Below, piece by piece: positions 35,256-51,212 of a DNA stretch of 64,000 nucleotides (the stretch's first letter is position 1; every line of letters starts with the position of its first letter). Location: contig JASFQK010000032.1 in the NCBI GenBank assembly GCA_050115495.1, positions 17,769-81,768 on the forward strand, read 5' to 3'. The position numbers and the translations under genes were made by a program. Source of the stretch: Phycisphaerae bacterium (GTDB lineage: Bacteria; Planctomycetota; Phycisphaerae; UBA1845; Fen-1342). The notes below the pieces were generated by a model, which was not told where the DNA came from, ran no database searches, and worked only from the letters and a program-made list of their open reading frames with translations.

Positions 35256-35431
35256 GGAGAACCATCCTTGATTCTTCCCGTGCCCGTCCTCCTGCTCGGG
35301 CCTCTTTCCAGAGCGAGTATAACAGATGTCGCGTAATGGCGTCGAGTTGGATAATGTACGCGTCTGCGGTGCCGCACGGCGCGACGGCGCGGCGGCGGCG
35401 CCCGGGGTACTCGTCGGCAGGCCCAAGTCCC

Positions 35432-36268
35432 ATGCGCACAAGCAACGCTGCCATCCGATCGCTGGGCGCCATCGGGGCCCAGGCTACGGCCCTGCTGGCC
35501 GGCTTCGGGCACTTCTGGACGTTCGGGGCGAGCGCCGCAGCTTACGCTCCACTGGACATGTGCACGCTGCGCGGCTGGCGGCGATTCCTGCCGCAGTGCT
35601 TCTACATCGGCACGCGCTCGGTACCGGTCATCATGCTGACCGGCGCGTTCGTGGGCATGGTGCTGATCGTGCAGGGCTGGGACCAGTTCGACGCCGCCGG
35701 CCTGACCGACCGCCTGGGGGCGATCGTGAACATCTCGGTGGCGGCGGAGCTCGGCCCGGTGCTGGCCGGGGTGATGCTGGCGGGCCGCGTCGGCGGGGCA
35801 CTGACCGCCGAACTCGGCACGATGAACGTCACCGAGCAGCTACTGGCCCTGCGATCAATGGGGGCGGATCCGATTCGCTTCCTGGTCACGCCGCGGTTCC
35901 TGGCCTGTCTGCTGCTGGCGCCGCTGCTGACGGCCTACGCTGACCTGATGGGCGCCCTGGGGGCGTGGCTCATCTTCTCCGGCGTGAAGGGTGGCGCCTC
36001 GGCGCCGTTCTGGAGCTACTCGGCCGAGATCGTCGAGATGTGGGACCTGTGCACCGGGATGATCAAGGCGATCTTCTTCGGCGGGGCGATCGGCCTGGTC
36101 AGTTGCTACCGGGGATTTCATTGCCGGCCGGGAGCCCAGGGCGTCGGCCAGGCCTGCACCGAGGCTTTCGTCATCAGCTTCATGTCGATCCTGGTGCTGG
36201 ACCTGTTTATCAACTTCGTCATGAACGGGCTGTACACCGCGTGGTACGGCTTCCGGTCGCTGATCTAG
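35432..36268 (+). CDS. mlaE: MlaE-family ABC permease
   Basis: ELGPVLAGVMLAGRVGGALTAELGTMNVTEQ, DPIRFLVTPR. Confidence 0.92.
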   Translation: MRTSNAAIRSLGAIGAQATALLAGFGHFWTFGASAAAYAPLDMCTLRGWRRFLPQCFYIGTRSVPVIMLTGAFVGMVLIVQGWDQFDAAGLTDRLGAIVNISVAAELGPVLAGVMLAGRVGGALTAELGTMNVTEQLLALRSMGADPIRFLVTPRFLACLLLAPLLTAYADLMGALGAWLIFSGVKGGASAPFWSYSAEIVEMWDLCTGMIKAIFFGGAIGLVSCYRGFHCRPGAQGVGQACTEAFVISFMSILVLDLFINFVMNGLYTAWYGFRSLI

Positions 36269-36280
36269 CCGGAGACGAGC

Positions 36281-37069
36281 GTGGTTGAAGTCGCCGACCC
36301 GATCATCGAGCTTCGCCGACTGAGCAAGTCGTTCGGCGCGCAGCGCGTGCTGGACGACGTGGACCTGCGCATCGAGCGCGGACAGACGACGGTGATCATC
36401 GGCCGCTCGGGTACGGGCAAAAGCGTGCTGCTCAAGCACATCGTGGGGTTGCTGCGGCCGGATCGGGGTGAGGTTTACTTCGCCGGCCAGCGGGTGGACC
36501 AGCTCGGCGAGCGGCAGTTCGTGCCCATTCGCCGGCAGATCAGCTTCGTCTTTCAGCTCAACGCCCTGTTCGATTCGATGAGCGTCGCCGAGAACGTCGC
36601 CTTTCCGATGATGGAGAACAGCGCGGCGCCGCTTCGGCGGCGGGAGATCATGGCGCTGGCCTCGCGGCGGCTGGAGATGGTCGGACTGGCCGGGTTCGAG
36701 GACAAGCGGCCGGCGGACCTGTCGGGCGGCGAGAAGAAGCGCGTGGCCGTGGCGCGGGCCATCGCCATGGAGCCGCCGCCGAAGGTCATCCTGTACGACG
36801 AGCCCACCGCCGGGCTCGACCCGCAGCGCAGCGACGTGATCAACCGATTGATCCGGCAGTTGCAGCAGGACGTGGGCGTGACCGGGATCGTGGTGACGCA
36901 CGACATGCGGCTGGCGACGGACGTGGGTCACCGCATTCTGATGTTGTGGAACGGCCGCTTCATCGCCGACGGCACGCCGGCGCAGCTCCAGCAAACGCGG
37001 AACGAGCACGTGCGGCGGTTCATCGAGGGTCAGGCGGAGCCTGAGGATATTCACACCCTGACATCCTGA
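36281..37069 (+). CDS. mlaF: MlaF-family ABC ATPase
   Basis: GRSGTGKS, FQLNALFDSM, LSGGEKKRV, LYDEPTAGLDP; follows mlaE. Confidence 0.9.
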   Translation: MVEVADPIIELRRLSKSFGAQRVLDDVDLRIERGQTTVIIGRSGTGKSVLLKHIVGLLRPDRGEVYFAGQRVDQLGERQFVPIRRQISFVFQLNALFDSMSVAENVAFPMMENSAAPLRRREIMALASRRLEMVGLAGFEDKRPADLSGGEKKRVAVARAIAMEPPPKVILYDEPTAGLDPQRSDVINRLIRQLQQDVGVTGIVVTHDMRLATDVGHRILMLWNGRFIADGTPAQLQQTRNEHVRRFIEGQAEPEDIHTLTS

Positions 37070-37429: not shown

Positions 37430-37708
37430 ATGTTGGAAATTGCCCCCCATACAAACCGCACCGTAAACCCGGCTCTGTCGGGTGTTGTGCCCAACCAGAA
37501 CCCCAAGGCGCAGGCGCCCGCCGCATCGCCCGAACAGAGCGATCGCGTCGAGCTGTCCGAGGCGGCCCGCACGTATGAGGCCGACAGCGCCGCGGATGTC
37601 CGTATCCGCGACCTGCGGGCTCAGATCGCCGCCGACGAGTACATCACGGACGACATGCTGGACGTTGTCGTCGACCGCCTGCACGAGGAGCTGTTCGGCA
37701 AGGCCTAA
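37430..37708 (+). CDS. flgM: Anti-sigma-28 factor FlgM
   Basis: 92 aa; DRVELSEAA and RIRDLRAQIAADEY..LD.VVDRL match the FlgM C-terminal pattern. Confidence 0.72.
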   Translation: MLEIAPHTNRTVNPALSGVVPNQNPKAQAPAASPEQSDRVELSEAARTYEADSAADVRIRDLRAQIAADEYITDDMLDVVVDRLHEELFGKA

Positions 37709-37720
37709 GCCGGCCGCCGT

Positions 37721-38113
37721 TCAGCGTGGTTCGCGACGACGGCGCCGCTGCGCCGCCTCGTATTGGGCCACGATCGTCGAGCGCATCCCCCCGCGCGGAT
37801 TCCAGTCCGTCTGCACGAGCAGCCGGCGCGGCCGCAGCGCGGCGACCAGATCGTCGAGGATCCGGTTCGTCAGCGCCTCGTAGAACGCGCCTTCGTCGCG
37901 GTACGCCTGGAAGTACAGCTTCAGGCTCTTGAGCTCGACGCAGAGCTTGTCGGGCGTGTACTCGATGGTCACCGTGCCGAAGTCGGGTTGCCCGGTCAGG
38001 GGACAGCGGCTGGTGAACTCCGGCGCCACGTGTCGGATCACGTAGTCACGCCCGGGGCTGGGGTTATCGAACGTCGCCAGCACTGTCTTGTTCGCTTTGG
38101 CCACGGCGGGCAC
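37721..38113 (-). CDS. queF: PreQ0 (7-cyano-7-deazaguanine) reductase
   Basis: PEFTSRCPLTGQPDFG, VELKSLKLY, PRGG; CAGGAG before GTG. Confidence 0.95.
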   Translation of the reverse strand: MPAVAKANKTVLATFDNPSPGRDYVIRHVAPEFTSRCPLTGQPDFGTVTIEYTPDKLCVELKSLKLYFQAYRDEGAFYEALTNRILDDLVAALRPRRLLVQTDWNPRGGMRSTIVAQYEAAQRRRRREPR

Positions 38114-38374
38114 CTCCTGCGCCGCACGGTCCTCGCGGCCGCCACGCCGACGGCCGGCAGGATTCCGGCTGCCCGTAGTGTAGTGCGCCGGCGGGAGGCG
38201 GAAAGGAGCACACCTCGCCCCGCAGGCGAACTCCGCGCAACGTCCGCGCGAAGAATAGCCCCGCGTCCGCGAATTCCCTCTTGGGCAGCCATCGCGCGCG
38301 CTGGGCTGTAAGCCTTCGTAAGACGCGTCGTTTTTCTAATTCCGTTACTCGCTGGAGCGATTACACTTAAGGTG

Positions 38375-38785
38375 ATGGAAGGTACCGGCGGCGGCATTCT
38401 GGGACGCCTCGGCGAGAAGGTGCTCGGCTGGATCGCCCTGGCGCTGATCGTCGCCCTCGGTTTCGGGCTCTACAAGATCGGCGCCCCAGGTCGGCAAGCA
38501 CTCTGGGGGGCCATCTGGCGTACCAGTCTATGGGTGGCCGTGGTCGGCGCCCTGCCCTGGACGATCCGCCTGTTCATTCGGCGGATCCTGGAGCTGAGCT
38601 CGAACTGGGCCGGCGTGGCCGTAATTGGCTCCTACGTCGTGCTCGACGCCCTGCTGGGCGTCATCCTGCTGAACGGGTTTCCCGCCGGCGGGTGGGGCTG
38701 GTTGCTGACATTGGCCGCCCTGGCCCTCGCCGGCACGTATAATTTTCTGGTGGCGGAGTACCTGTCCGAGCAAACCGGCCTCTGA
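38375..38785 (+). CDS. 4-TM membrane protein, first gene of ESCRT-like cluster
   Basis: Four hydrophobic segments; TACACT -10-like hexamer 7 nt before ATG. Confidence 0.7.
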   Translation: MEGTGGGILGRLGEKVLGWIALALIVALGFGLYKIGAPGRQALWGAIWRTSLWVAVVGALPWTIRLFIRRILELSSNWAGVAVIGSYVVLDALLGVILLNGFPAGGWGWLLTLAALALAGTYNFLVAEYLSEQTGL

Positions 38786-38829
38786 GCGGCGTCGTGCCGC
38801 CAGAGCCGGGGATGGATGGACGGCGAGAC

Positions 38830-39891
38830 ATGACCAAGTATCAGGCGGGTATGCGGATCAGCGAATACGTGCTGGAGAACTGCATCGGCTCCGGTACGTT
38901 CGGGGAGGTTTGGCAGGCCCGGCACCACGTCTGGGACAGCGAGCACGTCGCGGTCAAACTGCCGACCGAGCCGGAATACGTTCGTTACTTGCAGCGCGAG
39001 GGCGTGGTCGTTCACGGACTGCGCCACGCGAACATCATCCGCGTCATTGGCTTCGACCCCTTCGCCGAGAATCCGTACCTGGTCATGGAGCTCGTCCGCG
39101 GCCCGTCGCTACGGCAGGTGATCGACGAGCACCCCACCGGTCTGTCGATCGACGTCACGCTCTGCGTGCTCCGCGGCCTGCTGCGGGCCATGGAAGCCGC
39201 CCACGCCGGCGGCGTCCTGCACCGCGACCTCAAGCCCGGCAACGTCCTGCTCGACCTCAACGAGCGCCCCATCGAGGAGCTGACCGTCGACGACGTGAAG
39301 ATCGGTGACTTCGGCCTCGGCGTGAAGAACGCCGAGTCGCTGCGCTCCATCGCCCAGTCCGCCTCGCTGGCCCGCGAGGACCAGTTGGTAGGCACGCTGG
39401 CGTACATGGCCTCCGAGGTGCGCGACGGCGACCTGAAGCCCGACGCCCGGAGCGATCTGTACTCCGTCGGCGTTGTCCTGTTCGAAATGCTCACCGGTGA
39501 GCGGCCGGCCGGCGCCGAGCTGCCCAGCACGGTCCGGGCCCAGACGCCCCCCGGGCTGGACGAGGTATTCCGCCGGCTGTACGCCCGGCACGACCGCCGA
39601 TACGAGAATGCCCGGGCGGTGCTGGACGATCTGGACGCGCGGTTGACCGTGAAGCGTCCATCTGTGGTGATGGTGCCGCCACCGCCGCCGCCGCGGCTGG
39701 GTGTGGTGGGCAAGCCCGACTACTGCCCGCGGTGTCAGCACGTGGTGGGTCCGGACGATCAATTCTGCACGCAGTGCCGGTACCAGTTGGTGCCGCACGT
39801 GCGGCGCTGCCCGTCGTGCGACGGCTATCCGGGGCTGCACGACCGCTTCTGCATCTTCTGCGGCGCAGCGCTGCCGGACGAGGAGGAGTAG
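38830..39891 (+). CDS. Hanks-type Ser/Thr kinase with C-terminal double zinc ribbon
   Basis: IGSGTFGEV, VAVK, HRDLKPGN, DFG, GTLAYM, SDLYSVG; poly-Pro linker; four CxxC pairs. Confidence 0.93.
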   Translation: MTKYQAGMRISEYVLENCIGSGTFGEVWQARHHVWDSEHVAVKLPTEPEYVRYLQREGVVVHGLRHANIIRVIGFDPFAENPYLVMELVRGPSLRQVIDEHPTGLSIDVTLCVLRGLLRAMEAAHAGGVLHRDLKPGNVLLDLNERPIEELTVDDVKIGDFGLGVKNAESLRSIAQSASLAREDQLVGTLAYMASEVRDGDLKPDARSDLYSVGVVLFEMLTGERPAGAELPSTVRAQTPPGLDEVFRRLYARHDRRYENARAVLDDLDARLTVKRPSVVMVPPPPPPRLGVVGKPDYCPRCQHVVGPDDQFCTQCRYQLVPHVRRCPSCDGYPGLHDRFCIFCGAALPDEEE

Positions 39892-39897
39892 CGTCCC

Positions 39898-40185
39898 GTG
39901 CTGCTGGCGGACAGCGTCATCCTGATCGTCTTCGGGTTGCTGTTGATCGGCATCATCGGGTTCTTCTTCATGTCGGTGGTGCTGGTGACCCGCTTCTTCC
40001 GCTTCGTGTTCCGACTGATGGCCGGCACGGGGCGGCCTCCGGTGCCGCCGATGCCGACGAAGCCAGTCCGCACCACGCCCTGCCCGGCCGAGCGCTGCGG
40101 CAACCCGAACCCGGTCGGAGCGCAGTACTGCGCCCGCTGCGGGCGACCCCTGGCCCGCGAGGCTGATCTCGATGCCTATGGATGA
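39898..40185 (+). CDS. Membrane-anchored zinc-ribbon protein
   Basis: N-terminal TM; CPAERC..N...AQYCARCG; GAGGAGG upstream; overlaps next gene. Confidence 0.72.
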   Translation: MLLADSVILIVFGLLLIGIIGFFFMSVVLVTRFFRFVFRLMAGTGRPPVPPMPTKPVRTTPCPAERCGNPNPVGAQYCARCGRPLAREADLDAYG

Positions 40186-41620
40186 GCGCAGCCGGCTGCG
40201 ACAGTTCGAGGAGCATTTCCACCAGCAACTGCGGACCCGCGCCGCCACGCTTCTGCGCGGCGCCCTGCCGGCCGACCGCCTCATCATCGAAGCCATGCCC
40301 GACGGCGTCGACACCGTGCGGGCCACGCTGACCCGGCTCGAACGCTACGACCGCGACCTCGTCGAGCAACTCCCCGGCACGCGCACCGTGCAACTCCGCT
40401 TTCGGCGGAACGTGCTGGGCGGTCTGCTGTCGCGACCGGTGGCCCGGGTGCGGGCGCAGATGCTCGCTCCGCTCGAAGCCCTGGTCAGCGGAGAGGCCGT
40501 CGGCCCGATCGGTCGCGAGGCCGTCCTCGACGCCCTCGCCCGCTACGAGCTGATGCCGCGCAGCGAGCGTCCCACCGCGGTCATCTTCGCCAGCGCCACC
40601 GGCTTCACGCCCGAGGCGAAAGCCCTGGTCAGCGTCCCCGGCCCAGCCCGCCTGATCCTGATGAACGGGCGTGACGACGGCGGCTGGGACGTGGTCATGC
40701 CCGACGCCGTGCGCAGCGGACCCTGGGCGCGGCTGCTCGAGTTCGAATCGCAGGACGACCGCTTGCAGCGTTTGCGGTATCATCTGGACAAAAGCGCCAC
40801 GTTGCTCGATTCGCGGGGCATCTCGATCGCCGAACTGGCCGAGCAGACCGGGCTGTCCCCCGAGCAAACCGAGGCCCTGATCCGCAAGGCCTGCCGGCTG
40901 GACTCGCGTCTGCTGACCGTGGTACATGAGAACAGGGTCCATGTATGTCGCAGCCCCCTGAGCGATGAGAACAACGCCATGAGTATCTGGAGCCGAATCC
41001 GCCGGTTGTTGCGGCTCAAGCCCACCGCCGCCGAGCAGGTACGCACCCTGACGGTGCAGCGTGTGGCCCTGGAGCAGCAGCGTCACGAGGTGGATCAGAG
41101 GATCAGGGCGCTCGAGGCGGAGGAGTTGCAGGCCGTCCAGAGCGGTGCCGCCGCCAAGAGCAACGCCGAGCGCAAGCAGATCGCCGGACGGCTGGTGCGG
41201 GTGCGGCGTGACCTGCGCCGCGTGCGCTCGCAGGCCACCGTCTTCAGCCAGCAGATCGACATCCTGGGCACGCATATCCACAACCTGACGCTGGCCGAGC
41301 AGGGCCGGCGGCTGGAGCTGCCCAAGGCCGAGGAGCTGACCCGTCAGGCCGCGGAGGCCGAGCAGGTCGTCAGCGAGTTGGCCGCCAACGCCGAGTTGGC
41401 CGCCGGCATCGAGGTCGGAGCCACCACGCCGGAGATGGAAGAGGAGGAGGCCGCGATCATGGCGGAGTTCGCCCAGGTCGCCGCCGAGTCCGCTCCCGCG
41501 GCACCGGCGGCCGAAGCGACGCCCGCCGCGCCGGCCCCGGCCGAGGAGCAGCGCGCCCCGGCGGCAAAGGCCCCACCGTCCGCCGAAAACAAGGAGAAGG
41601 CCGGGCCCGAGATGGGCTAA
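40172..41620 (+). CDS. Fusion: alpha/beta domain + winged-helix-like domain + ESCRT-III/Snf7-like helical domain
   Basis: GISIAELAEQTGLSPEQ HTH; then MSIWSRIRRLL amphipathic helix, basic helical hairpin and acidic C-terminal helices (EMEEEEAAIMAEF). Confidence 0.65.
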   Translation: MPMDERSRLRQFEEHFHQQLRTRAATLLRGALPADRLIIEAMPDGVDTVRATLTRLERYDRDLVEQLPGTRTVQLRFRRNVLGGLLSRPVARVRAQMLAPLEALVSGEAVGPIGREAVLDALARYELMPRSERPTAVIFASATGFTPEAKALVSVPGPARLILMNGRDDGGWDVVMPDAVRSGPWARLLEFESQDDRLQRLRYHLDKSATLLDSRGISIAELAEQTGLSPEQTEALIRKACRLDSRLLTVVHENRVHVCRSPLSDENNAMSIWSRIRRLLRLKPTAAEQVRTLTVQRVALEQQRHEVDQRIRALEAEELQAVQSGAAAKSNAERKQIAGRLVRVRRDLRRVRSQATVFSQQIDILGTHIHNLTLAEQGRRLELPKAEELTRQAAEAEQVVSELAANAELAAGIEVGATTPEMEEEEAAIMAEFAQVAAESAPAAPAAEATPAAPAPAEEQRAPAAKAPPSAENKEKAGPEMG

Positions 41621-41647
41621 GCGGGCCGCAGGAGAGCAGGCGAGGCC

Positions 41648-42256
41648 ATGAACTTCTTCACCTGGCTGACCACGAAGCGCAAGACCCTGGCGACGATGAC
41701 GCTCACCGAGCTGCGCGCCCAGGAGATGATGCTCGAAAACGAGCGCAACCGGATGCAGACGCGCGTCACCAAGCTCGCTCGCGAGAAGCAGCAGATCATC
41801 GACCGCGGCGCCAAGGAGAAGACGCCCGAGCTGCGCCGCACCTTCGCCCAGCAATACGACCTGCTGCACACCGAGCAGATGATGCTCGCCCGCCACCTGA
41901 ACATCCGCAGCAAGGAGTACCTCACCGTCGCCCGGCTGCGCATGCTCCGCGAGAACACGCAGCGGGCCGGCGTGGGCACCAGCGCCCGCACGCTCATCCG
42001 CGAGGGCGACCTGGCCGTCATCGAGCGCCTCATCGAAAACGACCGCGTCTCCACCGAGGTCTACCAGGAGCGGCTCGACGAGATCCTGCGCCTCGGCCAG
42101 GAGGCGGACGAGGCCACGGCCGGCGTCTCCCCTGCCGCCGGCGAACTGCTCAAGATCTGGAACGACATGGATGCCGGACTGATCAAGGACACCGACGCCG
42201 CCTTCGACGAGGCCGAACGGCGCGTCCGCGAGCGCGAGAAGGCCGCCGACGCCTGA
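41648..42256 (+). CDS. ESCRT-III/Snf7-like protein
   Basis: 202 aa, all helical; MNFFTWL amphipathic start; basic N-half, acidic C-half. Confidence 0.65.
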   Translation: MNFFTWLTTKRKTLATMTLTELRAQEMMLENERNRMQTRVTKLAREKQQIIDRGAKEKTPELRRTFAQQYDLLHTEQMMLARHLNIRSKEYLTVARLRMLRENTQRAGVGTSARTLIREGDLAVIERLIENDRVSTEVYQERLDEILRLGQEADEATAGVSPAAGELLKIWNDMDAGLIKDTDAAFDEAERRVREREKAADA

Positions 42257-42279
42257 CCCGCCACCTGCCGGAGATCACC

Positions 42280-42888
42280 ATGGGCCTGTTCAAGTCCAAA
42301 GAAGAACGCCGGATGGAACGCGATATGAAGATCCGCCAGGGCATCCGGCGGATCGAGAAGGCCATCGCCGAGCAGAACAAGTTCACGGATGAGTTCGTCA
42401 AGAACGCCCGGCAGGCCCGGCAGATCGGCGACATGGCGTCGTACCAGTTCGTTCGCAACTCGCTGAAGAAGACGGCCACGATCAAGAAGCTGCTCGAACG
42501 GCAGCTCCTGGCCGTCAAGAACGCCCTGCTCATCAAGCGCCAGGCCGAGGCCGGCGCCGATTTCGCCCAGGCCATGAGCACCATGGCCTCCGAGGTGAGC
42601 CGCCTCTACGGCGACACCGACCTCGTGAAGACGCAAATGGACTGGGAAAAGGCCATGATGCAGTCGCAGTCGATGGAGGAGCGCATGCAGATGTTCCTCG
42701 ACTCGATCGAGGAAGGGGCGGCGGCCGACGTGCGTGCCGCCGCGAGCGAGGCCATCTCCGACGAGGAGATCGACCGCATGATCGAGGCCGAGGAGCAGGT
42801 CGAGGACGCCCGCGAGGCTCAGCAGATGAGTGCCCTCCGTGCCGAGCTCGCCCAGCTCAAGAATCCCGGTGCGAAGGAAACCAAGTAA
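42280..42888 (+). CDS. ESCRT-III (Snf7/Vps2/CdvB-like) protein
   Basis: 202 aa; MGLFKSK start; ARQARQIGD hairpin turn; Met-rich helices; SDEEIDRMI helix; C-terminal LRAELAQLK MIM1-like motif. Confidence 0.75.
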   Translation: MGLFKSKEERRMERDMKIRQGIRRIEKAIAEQNKFTDEFVKNARQARQIGDMASYQFVRNSLKKTATIKKLLERQLLAVKNALLIKRQAEAGADFAQAMSTMASEVSRLYGDTDLVKTQMDWEKAMMQSQSMEERMQMFLDSIEEGAAADVRAAASEAISDEEIDRMIEAEEQVEDAREAQQMSALRAELAQLKNPGAKETK

Positions 42889-42925
42889 CCGCGGCCGGCC
42901 ACGCCCCGCGGGGTGGACGACAGAC

Positions 42926-43108
42926 ATGAGCGACTACGACGAACGACAATGGGGTGGCTTGCCGGCCCTGGGCCTGCTGGCGCTGGCCACGGCCCTGGCC
43001 TGGCTCTTCACCAACCCCTACCTGGGCTTCGTGATCGTCTTTGCCAGCGGCGTCGCCGTGCTGGCCGCCGTCGATTTCCTCCGGCGGCGCTCGCGGCCGC
43101 GTTCATAG
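42926..43108 (+). CDS. Small 2-TM membrane protein
   Basis: 60 aa, two hydrophobic helices then an Arg-rich tail; fills the gap within the operon. Confidence 0.6.
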   Translation: MSDYDERQWGGLPALGLLALATALAWLFTNPYLGFVIVFASGVAVLAAVDFLRRRSRPRS

Positions 43109-43171
43109 AACCGAGGTTCGTCCGCGCGGCGGGCCTTCCCGGCGCGGTCTTTGCGGAGCAGGGCGGGCAAC

Positions 43172-44296
43172 ATGGCTGCAACTTTCGCCACGTTCAAGCG
43201 ACTCAAGGACAAGGGCTTGACCGCCCTCAAGCAGGGTGACTACGTCACCGCCCGCCCCTACCTCATCCAGGCCGCCGAGTGCATGATCGAGATCGCCGAG
43301 GAGAACCGCGACGCGACGCAGCGTGCCGAACAGGAAGCCTACGCCCGCGAGCTGATCGATCTCGCCAAGGACTGCTCGCGCCGCTCGCGCGAGGGTGGCG
43401 GCGGCGGCCGTACCGGCGACCGCGCCCGTGAAGATGAAGAAGGCGGCGCGAGCGCCGACGACTGGATCGTCCGCGAGAAGCCCAATATCCACTTCACCGA
43501 CATCGCAGGTCTGGAAGACGTCAAGGAAGAGATCTACCTCAAGATGATCTACCCCTTCCGCCATCCGGAACTGGCGCAGCACTACGGCATCGACACCGGC
43601 GGCGGCCTGCTGCTCTACGGCCCGCCCGGCACCGGCAAGACCATGATCGCCAAGGCCGTGGCCTGCGAGGTCGAGGCCACCATGTTCGTCATCAGCCCGG
43701 CCCAGATCATGAGCAAGTGGGTCGGCGAGGCCGAGCAGAACGTCCGCAAGCTGTTCGAGGCCGCCAAGGATGAAGAGAAGAGCGTCATCTTCATCGACGA
43801 GATCGAGGCGCTCGTGCCGGCCCGCCGCCGATCCGACTCGACCGTCATGCAACGTGTCGTGCCGCAGATCCTCCAGGAGCTCGAGGGGTTCGACCGCCGG
43901 GCGGGGCGGGCCCTGATGTTCATGGGGGCGACGAACGAGCCGTGGAGCCTCGACCGGGCGGTGATGCGGCCCGGGCGCTTCGACTCCCGCGTGTACGTTC
44001 CGCTGCCCGATCCGGCGGCCCGCTTCAAGCTGTTCGAGATCTACCTCGGCAAGCGGCCCCTGGAAGACGACGTCGATTTCGCGGCCCTCGTCGAGCAAAC
44101 CAACGGCTACAGCGGGGCCGACATCAAGGCCATCTGCACGCGTTCGGCAACTCGTCCGTTTTTGGAATCGGTTGGCGGCGCCGAACCACGTAAAATTAAT
44201 ATGGCGGACGTGCGGGAGACGATCGGCGAAGTTCTGCCGTCCGTCAGCTCGAAGGACTGCCAGAAGTACGAGGAGTGGGCGGCCACGATGGGCTGA
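43172..44296 (+). CDS. Vps4/CdvC-like AAA+ ATPase with N-terminal MIT-like domain
   Basis: Three-helix N-domain, linker, EKPNIHFTDIAGLEDVK, GPPGTGKT, SKWVGE, IFIDE, GATNEPWSLD, GYSGADI, PSVS..D..KYEEW C-terminal helix. Confidence 0.85.
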   Translation: MAATFATFKRLKDKGLTALKQGDYVTARPYLIQAAECMIEIAEENRDATQRAEQEAYARELIDLAKDCSRRSREGGGGGRTGDRAREDEEGGASADDWIVREKPNIHFTDIAGLEDVKEEIYLKMIYPFRHPELAQHYGIDTGGGLLLYGPPGTGKTMIAKAVACEVEATMFVISPAQIMSKWVGEAEQNVRKLFEAAKDEEKSVIFIDEIEALVPARRRSDSTVMQRVVPQILQELEGFDRRAGRALMFMGATNEPWSLDRAVMRPGRFDSRVYVPLPDPAARFKLFEIYLGKRPLEDDVDFAALVEQTNGYSGADIKAICTRSATRPFLESVGGAEPRKINMADVRETIGEVLPSVSSKDCQKYEEWAATMG

Positions 44297-44325
44297 ACTC
44301 CCGTCAGGTATACGGAGGACGAGCC

Positions 44326-44688
44326 ATGCCACGACAACCGGTTCGCGACGTGCCGGGTCTGCGGCGATGCCCGTCCCCTACCTGCGATGGCCTGAACCCG
44401 GCGCGGGCCCGCTACTGCGGGCAGTGCGGATGTGCGCTGTACCGGCCGCCGGCCGCGGTCGCGCGCCAGGCGCCGATCAGCGCCGGCGTCGCGTATGGGC
44501 TGTGGGCGCTGTGTTTGGCCGGGGCGGCGGGGATCCACCGCTTCTACCTCGGCCGGTACGTCACCGGGGCCGTTTGGCTGCTGACCTGGGGTCTGCTGGG
44601 CGTTGGATCGTTCTTCGACCTGTTCCTGATCCCCGGCATGGTCGAGAAGCAGAATCGCGATTGGGCGGCGGCGGGCTGGACGAACTGA
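44326..44688 (+). CDS. Zinc-ribbon + TM2 domain membrane protein
   Basis: CPSPTC..N...ARYCGQCG; GIHRFYLGR..G..WLLTWG..G...DLFLIP; GGAGG upstream. Confidence 0.85.
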   Translation: MPRQPVRDVPGLRRCPSPTCDGLNPARARYCGQCGCALYRPPAAVARQAPISAGVAYGLWALCLAGAAGIHRFYLGRYVTGAVWLLTWGLLGVGSFFDLFLIPGMVEKQNRDWAAAGWTN

Positions 44689-44719
44689 GGCCGCCGCGCC
44701 GGAAGGAGCGAATCGCCGA

Positions 44720-46483
44720 ATGAGCCGCAGCATCGTGGAACGTCTGGCCGACGAACACCTGGTGGCTCTTGCCGCCGCCGGGGACGCGTGGCCGCGCGCC
44801 CTGCTTTCGACCACGCCGGTGCCCGACGGCTGGCTGGCGCTGGTCGAACGCCGCGACGGCGGCCGCCGGCTCGTTCCCGCCGGCGAGGATCCGGCGGCGG
44901 AGCGCGGCGATCGACTACTGCTCGTGCGCGATCGGTCGCTCACGGTGCCGCTGCACCTCGCGGAGGTACGCACCGCTTCGGGACACGCCGTGTCGGCTAC
45001 GGTGGAGATCGTCCTCCGCTGGCAGGGCCGCGATGATGATGTCGCCGCTCTGGGCCGCTCGCTGCTGGTCGGCGACGAGCTCACCCTGGATCAACTGGCC
45101 CGGGCCGTCGATGATGGCGGCGGGCGCGCAACACTGCTCGCCTTCATTCGCGAGCGTGGCGCCGTCGACCTCGTGCACGAGGATTGCAGTGCCGACCTGC
45201 TCGCCGTCCTGCGCGAGGGGTTCAAGCGCTTCCTGTTTTCGAGCGGGGCGACGCTCGAACGGCTGGCCGTGGCACGCTTTGCGAGTCCGGCACTCGCCGA
45301 AGAGGAGACGCTCCGCCGCGAGACGGCCGCCCACGTCGAGCGGATCAAAGCCCACGAGATGGTGCAACAGGCTGCGCTCGCCGCCACGCAGCGCCGCCTC
45401 GAAGGGCTCAGCGGCATCTTCACTCAGCTTCAGTCCGCCGCCGGCGGCGACGAGCGCATGCAGTGGCACGACCTGCTGCCCGCCCTCTCGCCCGGCGATC
45501 GTGGTCGCCTGCTCGAAAACCTGTGGCGCATCACACCCGACCGCTATACCGCCACTGCAATCGTGGTCGTCGCCGGCCAGGAATGCCTGTGGCTCGCCCC
45601 GGCGCCGCCACACGATATAACGCGTCGCGTGACACTCGCCGAAAGTCTAGGCGGTGTGCGCTCGGTGGCGTTCTGTTCGCAGCGCAACTGGCTGCTGGTC
45701 GGTGCGGCACGTGGCGTGTGGGCCCTGGCGGCTGACAGCGGCGAAACGCAGGGTTGCTTCGAAGTGCCCGACGCGCCGGCGCCACGCACGGGCTTCAACG
45801 CGATCGCGGTCGCCGGCGACGTGCTCTACGCGACGCACTCGCAGCTTGGCTGCTGGCGTTGGCCGCTGGCGGAGCCGGACAAGGCCGAATGTCTGCTCGC
45901 TCCGGCGGACGGTCAGCCTCGCGCGGTCCGCGCCGTCACGGCCACTGACGACGGTCGCATCCTATTCGCGACCGATCAGACCGTGCAGCTCTACGACCCG
46001 GCCGCCGGCAGCGTCACGGCGCTCGCCGACGCGGGCGACACGATCCACAGCCTGGCCACGATCGAGCAGCACGTGTTCATCGGTACGGCTGACGGCCGCA
46101 TCCTCCAATGCGCTCTGGACGGCGGCGGCGAGCACCGCGTCGTGCACCGCGCCCGACACGCCATCGAGTCCATCCAACCCCGCCGCTGGAACGACCTGAT
46201 CGAGCTCGTCATGCCCGCGGGGATCGAGGGCATCGCCGGCGTGTTCTGTGGCGAGGGTCTGGTAGGCCGGCTGATGTCCGCGGCAATACCGATCCGCCGG
46301 GCGTGGGCATGCGACGACCTGGTTACGGGACTGACCACCGCTCGCGACCGCCTCATCGTGCTGAACGCGAATCTACCCGACGTCACGCCGCGCGAAGTGG
46401 CCATCGCCCGCGAGACCGGCCACTCGGTGCAGGACGCCTGCCTGATCGTCGCGGAACAAGCTGAACCGGAAGACCGCACATGA
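44720..46483 (+). CDS. SPFH/Band-7-like N-domain + coiled coil + beta-propeller protein
   Basis: VPDGWLALV start, VRTASGHAVSATVEIVLRW strand pattern, helical region, WD40-like blades (VRSVAF, VRAVTAT, IHSLAT, VFIGTADGRI). Confidence 0.55.
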   Translation: MSRSIVERLADEHLVALAAAGDAWPRALLSTTPVPDGWLALVERRDGGRRLVPAGEDPAAERGDRLLLVRDRSLTVPLHLAEVRTASGHAVSATVEIVLRWQGRDDDVAALGRSLLVGDELTLDQLARAVDDGGGRATLLAFIRERGAVDLVHEDCSADLLAVLREGFKRFLFSSGATLERLAVARFASPALAEEETLRRETAAHVERIKAHEMVQQAALAATQRRLEGLSGIFTQLQSAAGGDERMQWHDLLPALSPGDRGRLLENLWRITPDRYTATAIVVVAGQECLWLAPAPPHDITRRVTLAESLGGVRSVAFCSQRNWLLVGAARGVWALAADSGETQGCFEVPDAPAPRTGFNAIAVAGDVLYATHSQLGCWRWPLAEPDKAECLLAPADGQPRAVRAVTATDDGRILFATDQTVQLYDPAAGSVTALADAGDTIHSLATIEQHVFIGTADGRILQCALDGGGEHRVVHRARHAIESIQPRRWNDLIELVMPAGIEGIAGVFCGEGLVGRLMSAAIPIRRAWACDDLVTGLTTARDRLIVLNANLPDVTPREVAIARETGHSVQDACLIVAEQAEPEDRT

Positions 46484-47172
46484 CCACGCACACACGCACC
46501 ACGCTCGCTCGCACGATCGACCACACGCTGCTGAAGCCCGAGGCGACGGCGGCGCAGATCGACTGCCTCTGCGATGAATGCCGCGAGTTCAATTTCTACG
46601 CCGCCTGCGTGAACCCCGTGTGGGTGGCTCGCTGCGTCGAGCGTCTGGCCGGCAGCGGCACGTGTGTGGCCAGCGTGGTCGGCTTCCCCCTCGGTGCTAC
46701 GACGCCCGCGGCCAAGGCGCTCGAAGCCCGCCTGGCCGTCGAGCAGGGTGCGGCCGAAGTGGACATGGTGGTCAACCTCGGGGCGCTGATCGCCGGCGAA
46801 GAGGCGACGGTCGCCGAGGACATCGCCGCCGTCGTCGAGGCCGCCCGCGGGGCCAACCCGCACGCCCTGGTGAAAGTGATCCTCGAGACGCGGGCGCTGA
46901 CGGACGAGCAGATCATCCTCGGCTGCCGCTGCGCGGTGGAGGCCGGGGCCCATTTCGTGAAGACGTCGACCGGTTTTCACGCCGGCGGCGGGGCGACGGT
47001 TGAGCACGTGGCCCTGCTCCACAAGCACGCCGGCAATCTGGGTGTCAAAGCAGCGGGGGGCATCCGCGACCTGCCCACGGCACAGGCTATGTTGGCCGCC
47101 GGCGCTACGCGGCTCGGCATGTCGGCCAGCATCGCCGTCGTCGAAGCCCTGCCCGCCGAGCCGGGAGGGTAG
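46480..47172 (+). CDS. deoC: Deoxyribose-phosphate aldolase
   Basis: IDHTLLKP, VGFPLG, EVDMV, KVILET, FVKTSTGF, VKAAGGIR. Confidence 0.96.
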   Translation: MTTHTRTTLARTIDHTLLKPEATAAQIDCLCDECREFNFYAACVNPVWVARCVERLAGSGTCVASVVGFPLGATTPAAKALEARLAVEQGAAEVDMVVNLGALIAGEEATVAEDIAAVVEAARGANPHALVKVILETRALTDEQIILGCRCAVEAGAHFVKTSTGFHAGGGATVEHVALLHKHAGNLGVKAAGGIRDLPTAQAMLAAGATRLGMSASIAVVEALPAEPGG

Positions 47173-47546
47173 TGATGGCCTACGCCCGTCAATGTGATCG
47201 CTGTCGGCGGGTGGTGGCCCCGCGTGGCAACCTCAACGCCCGCTACTGCCCGTACTGCGGCGCACAGCTCAGTGGCGCCCCGGTCGAAATGCCCAGCTCG
47301 TCCGGCACGACACCGGATTTCGCTGGGGCGGCCGCGGCCGTCGCCGTGGTCTGCGGCGTGCTCTCCCTTCTTCTGCCCGGCGTCGGCGTCTTCCCGGCCA
47401 TCATCGCCATCGGCTTCGGCGCTCAGACCGTCCGCCGCGCCACCAGCCTGCCCGGCCAGCCCGGTATCGGGGCGGGTCGCGCCGGCGTCGTCCTGGGCAT
47501 CATCGGTCTCGTCGTCCAGTTGCTGGTCTGTTCCCGCCTGGCCTGA
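47172..47546 (+). CDS. Zinc-ribbon + DUF4190-like membrane protein
   Basis: CDRC..NARYCPYCG; two TM helices ending in G.G...AGVVLGIIG. Confidence 0.75.
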   Translation: MMAYARQCDRCRRVVAPRGNLNARYCPYCGAQLSGAPVEMPSSSGTTPDFAGAAAAVAVVCGVLSLLLPGVGVFPAIIAIGFGAQTVRRATSLPGQPGIGAGRAGVVLGIIGLVVQLLVCSRLA

Positions 47547-47746
47547 GCAGCTCAGTCCTGCAACCGTCCTCCACGGAGGGGACCACGACGGACGCGCGGT
47601 TGAACCGCACGAGTGCACTTCGCTACACTTGTCGTGTGAGGGGTCAGGTTGTGAAGTCGCCCCGAACCGAACAAACGCGTCTGACGCGACCACGTGGCCG
47701 CGTGAGGGGACGGTGTTGATCGGCGGAGCCTGGCGAGACGCGACCA

Positions 47747-49444
47747 GTGAGAACGGGCGGGTGCGCTACGTCCGCGGAACGCGGGGGACGGAGAAACCTT
47801 GCAGATAGCGCCGGCCAGCCGCGCGTCGCCCACCTTCGCGCCAACCGTGACACGGCGACACCGAAGCCTCGCGTTCGACTCAGCGGTATCCGTCCGGCGG
47901 CGGCGCGCCGCTCCCTCTCTCATGTGACCTTGCTGCTCTGCGGCCTGCAAGGCATCTACGCGCTGCTGTTCATCTGGCGCTCCAGTGTGGTCGTCACCAG
48001 GCAGCGGTATTTCTGCCTGTTCGACGACGCCCTCATTTCGATGCGCTACGCCCGGCACCTAGCCGAGGGACACGGGTTGGTGTGGAAGATCGGCGAACAC
48101 GTCGAGGGATTCTCCAACCTAGCGTGGACGCTGGTGATGGCCCTGCTGCACCTGCCCGGATTGGGGCCCAGCCACACGTGCCTGCTTACGCAACTGCTGG
48201 GCATCCCGATGCTGTGGTGCTGCGTGTGGGCCACGTACCGTCTGTGCAATGCGTTTCGGTTGCTGCCCCGCCCGGCGCTGATTGCGATCGTGCTGTGCGT
48301 CACATACTACAACTTGCTGTATTTCAGTCTGATGGGCATGGAGACGGCAGCGCTTTGCTTCGTCGTCACCATGGCTCTGGCGTCCGCGGTGTGGGCGCTG
48401 CGCGAGCGACGAGGCCGCCTTGCCCCCTACGTCTGGTTCATGTGGGCCGTGCTGTTGCATGCCGACGCCGTGCTACTGACCTGTTGGACGGCGAGCTGGA
48501 TGCTCCTGCGCGTCCGTCAGCAGCGTTGGCGACCGGTCGTCGGGCTGGCTCTCGTCAGCGTCACTCTCGGTTTGCAGGCATGGTGGCGCCGCGTGTATTA
48601 CGGCGACTGGATGCCCAACACGTACTACCTCAAGATGACCGGCTGGCCGCTCGCGGACCGCCTCTTGGCCGGCGTGGACAATTCGGCGATCAGCCTGCTA
48701 ACGATGGCCGTGCCGCTCGGGCTGAGTCTGTGGGCGCTGCTTGGACGCCGGCGGCGCATTGCCGCCTTCCTGATCGGGGCGTTCTGCCTGTCCTTCGCGT
48801 TCCAGGTCTACGTCGGCGGCGATGCCTGGCCGCTGAACCGCTTCCTCATTCCGACCACGCCGGCGCTGTTCGTGGCGGCCGCGGCCGGCATACGCGGCAT
48901 AGTCCGCGATATGCTGCCTCGGCGCCACGGCGGACGATTGCCGCTGGGAGTCCTGGCCGCCGTCTGCCTGCTGGCGATCAACGGGATCCACTGGGACCAT
49001 ATCGTCCTGTTGGCCCAGCCGCAGATGGTGGGCGACAACGCCATGAACGTGCGTCTCTGGAAAGCCATTGAGCGTGTCGCAGATGACGATGCCTGTATCG
49101 GCGTCGGTTATGCGGGGTTGCTGCCGTACTTCTCGGACCGGAACTGCGTCGATCTGCTGGGCAAGTGCGAGCGTCACGTCGCCCGCACCACGGCACGGGC
49201 GGACAGCTACCTGCCCGGCCACAACAAGAGGGACACGCCGTACATCCTGGCCACCTACCGACCTGACATCCTCATCCACTACGAGTCGGCGGGCGTCCGC
49301 CCCGACTACTTTCCGGTCACCGTGGACGTCGACGGCATCGAGCAGATCTTCCTCGTCCATCATCGCACCTCCCACGTCCACGGGGGACGCCGCCTGCGCT
49401 GGAGCGATCGCGCCGAGTTTGTAACGCTCCCGCTGTCACCGTAG
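47747..49444 (+). CDS. GT-C membrane glycosyltransferase (AftB-like N-terminal motif); start uncertain
   Basis: [59 protein letters not shown]. Confidence 0.7.
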
Positions 49445-49508: not shown

Positions 49509-49544
49509 CGCCCCACGATCCGTAGCGATCCAAGGAGAATGTCG

Positions 49545-51212
49545 ATGGCGTCTGTAACCGCCGGTGCCCGCACCGTTCGTGCCCCCCGCGGCACGCAGCG
49601 CACTTGCAAGGGCTGGCAGCAGGAAGCCGCCCTGCGTATGCTCATGAACAACCTCGACCCCGACGTTGCCGAGCAGCCCGACGAGCTCATCGTCTACGGC
49701 GGCAGCGGCCGGGCGGCCCGCTCGTGGCCCGACTTCGACCGCATCGTCGCCACGCTCCAGCGGCTCGAAAACGACGAGACCATGCTGGTGCAGTCCGGCC
49801 GGGCCGTCGGCGTGATCAAGACGAACCCCGACGCCCCGCGCGTCCTCATCAGCAACTCGATGCTCGTGCCGAAGTGGGCCACCTGGGACGAATTCCGCCG
49901 ACTCGAAGCCCTCGGCCTGACCATGTACGGCCAGATGACCGCCGGCAGTTGGATCTACATCGGCACGCAGGGCATTCTCCAGGGCACCTACGAGTGCTTT
50001 GCCGCCGCCGCCAACCAGCACTTCGGCGGCTCGCTCAGGAACCGGCTGGTCGTCACCGGCGGGCTGGGCGGTATGGGCGGGGCCCAGCCGCTCGCGGCGA
50101 CGTTCAACGAGGCGACGTTCCTCGCCGCCGAGGTCGACCGCGCCCGCATCGAACGCCGCCTCAAGACGCGCTACCTCGACCGCATGACCGAGAGCCTCGA
50201 CGAGGCGATCGACTGGGCGCTCAAGGCCCGCCAGGCCGGGCAGGCGGTTTCCATCGGCTGGCTCGGCAACATCGCCGACCTGCTCGCCGAGCTGATCAAG
50301 CGCAAGATCACGCCGGACGTGCTCACCGATCAGACCTCGGCGCACGACGCCCTCAACGGCTACGTCCCCAACGGCATGACCTACGACGCCGCTCTCGCTC
50401 TGCGAGCCAAGGACCCCGAGCGCTACAGCAAGGAGTCCTACCGCACGATGGCCGAGCACATGCGGGCCATGCTCACGCTCCAGGAGCGCGGGGCCATCAC
50501 GTTCGACTACGGCAACAACCTCCGCGGCCAGGCTCAACTGGCCGGCGTCGAGAACGCCTTCGACGTCATCGGCTTCGTGCCGCTCTTCATCCGCCCGCTG
50601 TTCTGCGAAGGCTCGGGCCCGTTCCGCTGGTGTGCCATCTCCGGCGACCCGAAGGACATCGCCGCCACGGACGAAGCCGTCCTGGCCACCTTCCCCGAAG
50701 AGCAAGCCCTCTGCCGCTGGATCCGCATGGCCCGCGAGAAGGTCGCCTTTCAGGGTCTGCCCTGCCGCATCTGCTGGCTCAAGTACGGCCAGCGGGCCCG
50801 CATGGGCCTGGTCTTCAACGAGCTCGTCCGCTCGGATAAGGTCTCGGCCCCCATCGTCATCGGCCGCGACCACCTCGACTGCGGCTCGGTCGCCTCGCCC
50901 AACCGCGAGACCGAAGGCATGAAGGACGGTTCCGACGCCATCGCCGACTGGCCCATGCTCAACGCCATGGCCAACGTCGCCTGCGGCGCGTCGTGGGTTT
51001 CGATCCACCACGGCGGCGGCGTAGGCATCGGCTACTCGCTCCACGCCGGCATGGTCATCGTGGCCGACGGCACCGCGGAGGCCGACCGCCGACTCCAGCG
51101 CGTGCTGACCACCGATCCGGCGACGGGCGTCTTCCGCCACGCCGACGCCGGCTACGACCTGGCCATCGAGGTCGCCCGCAGCAAGGGCGTGGACGTCCCC
51201 GGCCTCGCGTAA
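49545..51212 (+). CDS. hutU: Urocanate hydratase
   Basis: [66 protein letters not shown]. Confidence 0.97.

Follow-up and report, generated by a model that had tools for sequence, protein, structure and literature searches.

In the described ESCRT systems, the MIT domain of Vps4 binds the tails of ESCRT-III proteins, and a hexameric AAA ring pulls these tails through its pore loops (PMC5039278, PMC4686814). Eukaryotic VPS4 and the CdvC proteins of TACK archaea share an N-terminal MIT domain, a linker, a single AAA module with an aromatic-hydrophobic pore loop and a PW motif, a C-terminal helix, and ESCRT-III neighbours. A survey that searched archaea and eukaryotes states that the pairing of ESCRT-III with Vps4 is confined to these groups (Makarova 2024; PMC10936438/PMC11188069), and recent reviews hold that bacteria lack such a membrane-remodelling machine. 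This report concerns AAA2 (protein P0001), a MIT-AAA ATPase encoded in a stretch of 64,000 nucleotides (the window) from a Phycisphaerae bacterium of the phylum Planctomycetota (assembly GCA_050115495.1, contig JASFQK010000032.1, positions 17,769 to 81,768, forward strand). The co-directional gene cluster around AAA2 is real and conserved, and likely encodes a bacterial ESCRT-III system that is homologous to the euryarchaeal “Main-clade” locus and whose ATPase in this class is a non-orthologous MIT-ATPase.

Bacterial ATPases that combine MIT with a Vps4-like module are known, Planctomycetes included; one example, Opitutus ACB74714, has a partner with TPR and six transmembrane segments (Ravi et al. 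2024; PMC11237479). At such loci snf7 is described as displaced, and a membrane-anchored Snf7 with tandem AAA modules is also reported (PMC11237479). The window operon, in contrast, retains three ESCRT-III-like genes together with a winged-helix (wH) protein. An operon of soluble Snf7 with MIT-Vps4 in bacteria appears neither in the passages of Ravi 2024 (PMC11237479) drawn on here nor in its supplement, and the portions of Liu 2021 drawn on make no mention of planctomycetes. A literature search that covered few subscription journals and placed supplement files 7 and 9 of PMC10936438 outside its scope returned no description of a Planctomycetota operon of ESCRT-III and Vps4. The component families and the bacterial Vps4-like ATPases are already known; it is their combination that contradicts published statements. 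The phage shock protein (PSP) system of PspA/Vipp1, PspC and Band-7 proteins is a further point of comparison. It shares with the operon a polymer of the ESCRT-III superfamily, Band-7 and zinc-ribbon partners and, in some loci, PspC, and differs in that the operon protein E3c is of Snf7 type, not PspA type, and is paired with a MIT-ATPase.

Domain structure of AAA2

The ATPase gene and its two defining elements are as follows.

43172..44296, + strand: MIT-AAA ATPase AAA2 (P0001), 374 aa, ATG start, single AAA module of the PW...RPGRF type
43184..43399, + strand: MIT domain, three predicted helices (residues 5-76), from AlphaFold2 (AF2), VIA and hhalign
43967..43984, + strand: RPGRFD (residues 266-271), second region of homology with arginines spaced in the classical manner

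All the motifs that a first-pass annotation of this DNA had named (one AAA module, linker, EKPN, KWVGE, ATNxPWxLD, C-terminal helix and RPGRFD) are read in the open reading frame (ORF). The N-domain (residues 1-76) leads into a Gly/acidic linker (about 73-97), followed by EKPN (102-105), Walker A GPPGTGKT (150-157), the pore loop KWVGE (182-186), Walker B FIDE (207-210), ATNEPWSLD (253-261) and the C-terminal helix motif PSVSSKDCQKYEEW (356-369). Walker A and B, pore loop and arginine finger are all intact. Pfam assigns AAA to residues 146-278, AAA_lid_3 to 300-330 and Vps4_C, the C-terminal oligomerisation helix, to 338-374 (23.5 bits against a cut-off of 21.3). The Vps4_C match recurs at E<=0.05 in 28 of 32 AAA2 relatives and is not specific, a similar helix being present in p97 D2. 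Judged by sequence length, the beta-domain insertion of eukaryotic VPS4 is absent from AAA2, as had been annotated: AAA2 has 61 residues between its SGAD motif and the C-terminus, compared with 106-108 in two eukaryotic Vps4 proteins and 78 in Thermococcus Vps4. Crenarchaeal Vps4 likewise lacks the beta-domain (PMC4686814).

The N-domain is a MIT domain by predicted fold and by profile. Helices are predicted at residues 5-20, 24-44 and 48-76, with a predicted local distance difference test score (pLDDT) of 90.5 (AF2, 32-sequence alignment). The three top VIA matches among 48,161 chains are all MIT domains: katanin p60 (Z 12.3, root-mean-square deviation (rmsd) 1.5, 78 residues aligned), MITD1 (11.8, 1.7, 73) and VPS4A (11.5, 1.2, 70), with yeast Vps4 MIT (Z 11.4) and archaeal CdvC MIT (Z 10.8) among those that follow. 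Foldseek aligns MIT domains with query-normalised template modelling (TM) scores of up to 0.85, and they form the majority of its top 30 matches, none of which reaches E<=0.001. Profile comparison by hhalign gives 94% with the N-domains of AAA1 (the second MIT-ATPase of related loci, described below), 93% with euryarchaeal Vps4, 83% with eukaryotic Vps4 and 56% with TACK CdvC, and below 0.2% with two helical controls. The annotated MIT bundle of about 70 residues is thereby upheld by the pLDDT, the top three structural matches and the 83-94% agreement with Vps4-type MIT domains.

Several observations weigh against this assignment. The TPR-type protein AtNASP (Z 11.4, rmsd 2.6) stands level with the MIT matches, in a range (below Z 13) where helical bundles may be generic, and Pfam does not list MIT for the 32 N-domains, giving weak TPR matches instead. 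A TPR reading was rejected: the TPR matches span residues 15-36 only, and the N-termini of seven related ATPases, a presumed TPR control, score 0.17%. AAA2 has both features of the working definition of Vps4 in Makarova 2024, a MIT domain at the N-terminus and ESCRT genes nearby.

The arginine spacing of AAA2 differs from that of Vps4 and CdvC, whose arginines are adjacent. Residues R266-P267-G268-R269 are invariant in 32/32 aligned relatives, and the motif is therefore not a sequencing accident; RPGR is also present in all 16 AAA2 rows of the trees described below. Meiotic clade AAA proteins (Vps4, katanin, spastin) carry an additional arginine immediately preceding the arginine finger (PMC5039278), a trait that AAA2 lacks; the agreement of the TACK and eukaryotic reference rows with this trait is circular, these rows having been retrieved via the RRF motif. 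Thermococcus Vps4 and AAA1 read SRF, likewise without the adjacent extra arginine. The annotated contrast with an “RRF type of Vps4/CdvC” is thus right about AAA2, which has RPGRFD instead, but RRF is not universal in Vps4.

The nearest alternative family is Cdc48/p97, whose D2 module (and FtsH and PAN) shares RPGR(F/L)D, an E.P.V entry and the SVS..D..KYE helix with AAA2; in alignment, D2 and AAA2 have in common the entry motif, RPGRLD/RPGR and this helix. A WVG(E/K) pore loop occurs in three of the eight Cdc48 D2 tree rows. Since EKPN, RPGR and the C-terminal helix also occur in Cdc48 D2, they are not Vps4 markers, and the description of all the motifs as Vps4-like was overstated, holding for MIT and PW. 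The PW of ATNxPW is found in 16/16 AAA2 rows and in the Vps4 and katanin groups, compared with 0/16 Cdc48 domains. The two AAA modules and double-psi-barrel N-domain of Cdc48/p97 are not found in AAA2, which has a single module and a MIT domain; at the level of motifs, AAA2 is told apart from Cdc48 only by MIT and PW. The best NCBIfam model for AAA2 is CdvC NF041006 (245.9 bits), ahead of CDC48 (233.7) and PAN (229.9); its cut-off of 650 bits is missed by AAA2, by eukaryotic Vps4 (243-248) and by most TACK rows, with one row above.

The operon and its homology to the Main-clade locus

The cluster that includes the AAA2 gene runs co-directionally from 38372 to past 46483. Relatives of its protein E3c comprise 2,503 protein matches. 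They also comprise 46 genome loci, all in Planctomycetota and mostly in Phycisphaerae, to which the locus counts below refer.

38372..38785, + strand: conserved hydrophobic 137-aa protein, first gene of the cluster; 31/46 loci; no Pfam match, no known family
38794..39891 (start possibly ATG 38812), + strand: Ser/Thr kinase with C-terminal double zinc ribbon (Pfam Pkinase, DZR); 38/46 loci
39898..40185, + strand: small hydrophobic-helix and zinc-ribbon protein, 95 aa (Pfam Zn_Ribbon_1); 19/46 loci
40172..41620, + strand: fusion protein P0004, 482 aa, with arCOG09748-like globular domain, winged helix and ESCRT-III-like C-terminal half (E3a); 41/46 loci
41648..42256, + strand: ESCRT-III-like protein E3b (P0003), 202 aa; 43/46 loci; no Pfam match
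42280..42888, + strand: ESCRT-III protein E3c (P0002), 202 aa, arCOG07402 homologue by hhalign to Thermococcus
42926..43108, + strand: 60-aa hydrophobic protein between E3c and the ATPase, in a slot of variable content; 1/46 loci
44326..44688, + strand: zinc ribbon and TM2 membrane protein (Pfam TM2, 45 bits against a cut-off of 27.9)
44720..46483, + strand: 587-aa protein, probably an SPFH/Band-7-like N-half with a beta-propeller; 24/46 loci

The ATPase is present in 32/46 loci (many of the 46 end early) and in 25/32 of the loci that reach at least 6.5 kb downstream.

The archaeal counterpart lies on a plasmid of Thermococcus peptonophilus, where genes WP_062390972-WP_062390961 are labelled in the supplementary table of Makarova 2024 (PMC10936438/PMC11188069) as Vps4, arCOG09748, arCOG08177, kinase and three Snf7-family proteins. 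The E3c alignment matches WP_062390961 (arCOG07402, ESCRT-III) at 97.9% in hhalign (E 6e-13). The N-half of P0004 matches WP_062390970 (arCOG09748) at 87.9% (E 3e-6, 137 columns), and its Atlas structure has TM scores of 0.55-0.58 to archaeal clusters. E3b gives weak phmmer matches to two Thermococcus Snf7-family genes (arCOG09747/09749; E 2e-6 and 8e-5 within a 24-sequence set). From these sequence matches we infer common ancestry of the window operon with the Main-clade ESCRT locus of euryarchaea.

The evidence from E3c itself is mixed, and the matches of E3c and the wH protein to the labelled archaeal locus are the decisive link for its ESCRT-III identity. Among 38 E3c relatives, Pfam finds Snf7 in nine (best E 4e-5) and PspA_IM30 in none at E<=0.1, and the Atlas neighbours of E3c include Snf7, at 13%. 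Weighing against an ESCRT-III identity, P0002 has no Pfam match of its own, and a PDB profile search with the E3c alignment gave 0 matches. CHMP2A/3, CdvB and Snf7 take Foldseek ranks 1-5, yet at E 0.075-0.27, with none at E<=0.001; the VIA list is headed by unrelated helical hairpins (Z<=9.2), with Asgard ESCRT-IIIB at rank 5 and Snf7 at ranks 12-13. Pairwise scores for E3b and the fused E3a are weak.

The Main-clade system of Thermococcus and the window operon have in common a wH protein, a further ESCRT-III gene next to a pair of adjacent genes that in the window are putatively of the Snf7 family, a Ser/Thr kinase and a MIT-AAA ATPase, in similar order. They differ in that Main-clade Vps4 reads SRF and YFGE, whereas AAA2 reads RPGR and WVGE, and in that the window operon has a bacterial host, a wH protein fused to ESCRT-III, the SPFH-propeller, TM2 and zinc-ribbon proteins and, in some loci, PspC. 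Neither the Main-clade Cas2/DUF3568 protein (arCOG08177) nor PP2C was recognised in the window's cluster; for arCOG08177 the search covered the cluster and not the rest of the genome.

Two ATPases in Planctomycetota

In other Planctomycetota the locus has the layout wH protein, E3a, E3b, [AAA1], E3c, AAA2, SPFH/propeller, kinase. A scan of 61 phylum genomes with the CdvC model led to the retrieval of 12 regions. Eleven loci with E3 genes are counted here (L046, L057-L063, L066, L067 and the window), leaving out L068 (ATPase, propeller, kinases, contig end) and L064 and L065 (ATPase only). AAA2, of RPGR type, is present in all 11, and AAA1, which reads SRF and mostly (Y/F)FGE, in seven (L046, L058-60, L062, L063, L067). 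AAA1 groups with a Chlorohelix ATPase and the Vps4 of Thermococcus and halophiles in a clade with support 100/99, within which bacteria and archaea are sisters, giving no direction of transfer.

A search of 301 class genomes (one query, E<=1e-60, six candidates scored per genome) did not find AAA1; the same search was positive in 4/4 genomes with an AAA1 locus and negative in one without. A profile search of the window's genome (G000, 92% complete) also did not find AAA1, returning only AAA2, FtsH and two weaker matches. The class thus appears to keep only the RPGR-type AAA2, whereas many Planctomycetota have a Main-clade Vps4 besides, and a non-orthologous MIT-ATPase would do the job of Vps4 alone in this class. 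A single ESCRT operon can thus hold two non-orthologous MIT-ATPases, of which the non-canonical one persists.

The Chlorohelix gene, a Main-clade-type Vps4 (SRF), lies on plasmid NZ_CP128401.1 of Candidatus Chlorohelix allophototropha (Chloroflexota; L192:1-4655), alongside two ESCRT-III-like genes and a Ser/Thr kinase. This is a second bacterial phylum with the system, in a possibly culturable organism. A scan of viral contigs for the Vps4 motif gave 0 matches, and a plasmid search with a distant E3c gave none.

Phylogeny of the AAA module

The main maximum-likelihood tree comprises 77 AAA modules over 274 columns (LG+C20, posterior mean site frequency (PMSF) model), from 78 hand-picked rows of which P0137 D2 was dropped for its long branch; a second tree has 40 rows. 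Most near-identical relatives were left out of all trees. Reference rows of TACK CdvC, eukaryotic Vps4 and katanin-like proteins came from metagenome contigs and were labelled by sequence features and hidden Markov model scores. Euryarchaeal Vps4 and two Cdc48 proteins came from named plasmids, six Cdc48-like rows were labelled by architecture, and FtsH of G000 served as root. The rows contain no Asgard Vps4, PAN or spastin, and groups were named after the trees were seen.

AAA2 falls in a clade of 30 rows, here called the PW-RPGR clade, with support 96/91 in the 77-row tree. Its members are Planctomycetota proteins, tandem AAA proteins, a Streptomyces ATPase and representatives without a taxon on record; “bacterial clade” would be a valid label only for members with a named taxon, and most have none. 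Together with all Vps4 groups, this clade is split from Cdc48 and FtsH with support 87/86 (77 rows) and 98/93 (40 rows). A maximum-likelihood tree of the kind that the first-pass annotation had proposed therefore places AAA2 on the Vps4 side of the family. In the 77-row tree the clade forms a fork with the TACK group and the Main-clade-plus-eukaryote group, inside none of the sampled archaeal Vps4 clades. In approximately unbiased (AU) tests, a topology with all RRF/SRF proteins as one clade and the clade of AAA2 as sister is not rejected (p 0.39), nor is its placement with Main/AAA1 (p 0.16) or with TACK (p 0.21).

Two other origins were rejected. The AU test rules against AAA2 as an in-operon duplicate of AAA1 (grouping with AAA1/Chlorohelix; p 2e-24). 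A sister relationship of the module to Cdc48 D2, suggested by the top PDB matches, is likewise rejected (p-AU 4.5e-5, with four D2 rows); the PDB scores favouring D2 are inflated by tandem modules, and the search of representative proteins for ATPase relatives was dominated by tandem AAA proteins. Five proteins (P0131, P0137, P0146, P0195, P0223) have a MIT-like N-domain and two AAA modules, the first near AAA2, which is a tandem MIT-AAA-AAA architecture.

By these trees, AAA2 is related to Vps4 yet is not the archaeal Vps4 belonging to the operon. The first-pass description of an early-branching or archaeal-derived Vps4 lineage fares unevenly: early branching agrees with the sister topology (p 0.39), but nesting fits too (p 0.16, 0.21), and archaeal derivation finds no backing, AAA2 being nested in no sampled archaeal clade and the archaeal-type Vps4 of the operon being another gene, AAA1. 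Its suggested value for the origin of ESCRT hinges on the deep order of these groups, for which sister and nested placements both agree with the tests. The pair of ATPases lets one ask what purpose the adjacent-arginine motif of Vps4 serves, and whether there was more than one recruitment of an ESCRT motor.

Distribution and co-occurrence

E3c was found in 104/121 genomes of the order, with near-complete coverage of three families (27/27, 27/27, 25/26) and 12/26 in a fourth, f57. Across the class it occurs in 89/301 genomes, only in this order, in f63 (40/48) and in f65 (1/2), and in 58/301 genomes sampled across the phylum. A system of a kind that bacteria have been held to lack is near-universal and single-copy in one bacterial order. 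The MIT profile of AAA2 occurs in 90/301 class genomes. Scored together in these 301, E3c and the AAA2 MIT domain are both present in 88, E3c only in one, MIT only in two (one of them G323, unpublished) and neither in 210, so that 88/91 carriers have both. Both are retained even when megabases apart (G248, G293, G141), and in f63 they are usually unlinked. Related genomes are not independent, which weighs against a literal reading of these counts: the co-occurrence reflects few lineage-level events.

Co-occurrence bears on whether AAA2 is the motor of the system at all. It could be a general unfoldase of the broad PW-RPGR family that is merely sited in the operon, AAA1 having been the true motor and the E3 proteins now being motorless like PspA. 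The clade does include tandem or membrane-anchored AAA proteins and a TPR-linked Streptomyces ATPase without ESCRT-III seen alongside, AAA2 is often unlinked from E3c, and G059 has AAA2 without E3 neighbours within 14 kb. G059, however, has E3c on another contig, the 88/91 co-occurrence includes unlinked cases, the MIT domain of AAA2 is closest to those of AAA1 and the Main clade, and AAA2 is in 11/11 phylum loci with E3 genes as against seven for AAA1. We regard an unfoldase unconnected with ESCRT-III as very unlikely.

Possible roles of the system

In bacteria where FtsZ was not found, the system offers a candidate means of remodelling membranes and possibly of dividing. A division role, in which an ESCRT-III polymer cuts the septum as the Cdv system does in Sulfolobales and replaces the missing FtsZ, would fit the failure to find FtsZ in 41/41 order genomes (control positive in 13/14), the single-copy, near-universal presence of E3c in the three families, and the 79-91% conservation of P0002 relatives within the order. 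RNA-library contigs from one wetland run cover parts of the operon without differing letters, including 44078-44401, with none over 47284-49000; they come from one study, as contigs only and possibly from the source sample, and are no proof of transcription. A second run, X2, holds a small share mostly from other organisms and gives no evidence for the operon. E3c was not found, however, in 14/26 f57 genomes of the same order or in 212/301 class genomes, complete ones such as G001 included. Genomes without E3c also divide, so the system is not a general planctomycete division machine, and its patchy loss within the order speaks against its being essential for division. Nor was a CdvA-like gene recognised in the operon, and the homologous Thermococcus locus has been proposed to act in protein sorting, not division (PMC11188069). 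Division is on balance rather unlikely. Less likely again is the compound proposal that this FtsZ-less order divides or shapes its inner membranes by an archaeal-type ESCRT-III polymer whose driving MIT-ATPase is a sister to all Vps4 that has survived with the ancestral, Cdc48-type RPGR arginine finger; were it true, ESCRT-based division would be on record for the first time in bacteria, together with a living intermediate of the Cdc48-to-Vps4 transition.

Planctomycetes have extensive inner membranes, to which the operon might be tied if it served vesicle budding or a sorting of membrane proteins that depends on phosphorylation, as has been suggested for the archaeal Main clade. The operon parallels the Main and Meth_adaptin loci (PMC11188069) in its kinase, its wH protein and its SPFH partner, the kinase is retained in 38 of the 46 loci, and the propeller could serve as a cargo receptor. 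The window's cluster has no recognised phosphatase, FHA or adaptin-like gene, PspC insertions point toward stress sensing, and the archaeal function is itself a prediction. We regard budding or sorting as an unlikely account of the operon.

The reading we lean towards, by analogy and with some reserve, is that AAA2 is a single-ring motor that disassembles and recycles polymers of the three ESCRT-III-like proteins, the system most likely serving to repair or reshape the inner membrane during envelope stress. The membrane site would be marked by the SPFH-propeller, TM2 and zinc-ribbon proteins, the wH fusion would seed an E3a/E3b/E3c copolymer, and the kinase would regulate. The MIT domain would bind a C-terminal helix, for which the LxxxLxxLK tail of E3c is the best candidate; the hexamer would then thread the tail past the W183-V184 pore loop and extract subunits, the RPGR spacing still supplying the arginine finger, as in p97 and FtsH. 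Historically, a Main-clade-homologous operon would have come to exist with two ATPases in many Planctomycetota and with the RPGR type alone in this class.

The tail of E3c ends in a conserved helix, LRAELxxLK (LxxxLxxLK), which reads RLDALR or RLKKLE in some distant relatives. This helix resembles the consensus of MIT-interacting motif 1 (MIM1). Against its assignment as the MIT ligand, in this lineage the E3c tail has Glu at the position of the MIM1 Arg, and the tails of E3b and E3a are unlike MIM1.

Envelope repair is a best guess among the roles, drawn by analogy from PspC in some loci, Band-7, TM2 and the scarcity of PspA, which is above cut-off in 3/41 order genomes and not in G000. A PspC gene lies between E3b and E3c in at least 5/46 loci (L038-L041, L044; picked by eye). 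PSP loci typically have Band-7 and zinc-ribbon partners (PMC11237479 Table S3). Two points weigh against this role: the window's own operon has no PspC, and PspA-type repair in other bacteria works without Vps4 (PMC7619361), so that a stress role leaves the retention of the ATPase unexplained.

Other features of the operon and its surroundings

The 137-aa hydrophobic protein that opens the cluster has relatives in L058, L062 and L063 that form the C-terminal portion of larger proteins. The parts of P0004 are encoded as separate genes in other Planctomycetota, and the fusion has weak helix-turn-helix (HTH) and Snf7 Pfam matches. In L046:1004-2599, L062 and L063, which are of one family, the arCOG09748-like wH protein has an additional N-terminal MerR-type HTH, which suggests transcriptional coupling. 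The globular domain of arCOG09748 is described in Makarova 2024 as having no structural match; the N-half of P0004 (40172-40900) has a weak likeness to Mrr-type restriction-nuclease folds (TM 0.34-0.40; ASATGF motif). The window's propeller protein has weak WD40-type matches only, and among six relatives Band_7 is above cut-off in L063 and below it in L060. No sigma-70 promoter and no convincing + strand terminator were found in 37700-47800.

Operon slots in L001-L045 (e.g., L006:6200-6947, L001:6504-6911) are insertion hot spots, taking up MNT-HEPN pairs, 23S-IVP four-helix-bundle genes and other toxin-antitoxin-like genes. The insertions differ per genome and are co-directional in all ORFs listed. 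Short duplicated fragments of the ATPase 5' end or the E3c 3' end flank inserted genes (G089, G104, G209; L037:9694-9861; L019:8324-8428), hinting at insertion via duplication of operon sequence. A mobile defence island was considered for the core and is unlikely, the core being single copy, lineage-wide and similar in G+C content to the remainder of the window. Between ATPase and kinase, two distant Planctomycetota loci have a gene that by eye is AmmeMemoRadiSam/MEMO1-like (L053:604-1482, L054:524-1441).

Upstream of the operon lie housekeeping genes for an FtsK-like translocase, a MlaE/MlaF-like ABC pair, a FlgM-like protein and a QueF-like protein (32709-35441, - strand; 35336-37069, + strand; 37430-37708, + strand; 37721-38113, - strand). 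The FlgM-like gene has a weak Pfam match and the top RNA-contig depth in run X1; the others were named by eye. Downstream, ORFs at 47747-49444, 49539-51212 and 51326-55096 resemble, by eye, a membrane glycosyltransferase, a urocanate hydratase and an FG-GAP-repeat lipoprotein, the last of which is seemingly split into two ORFs on the minus strand.

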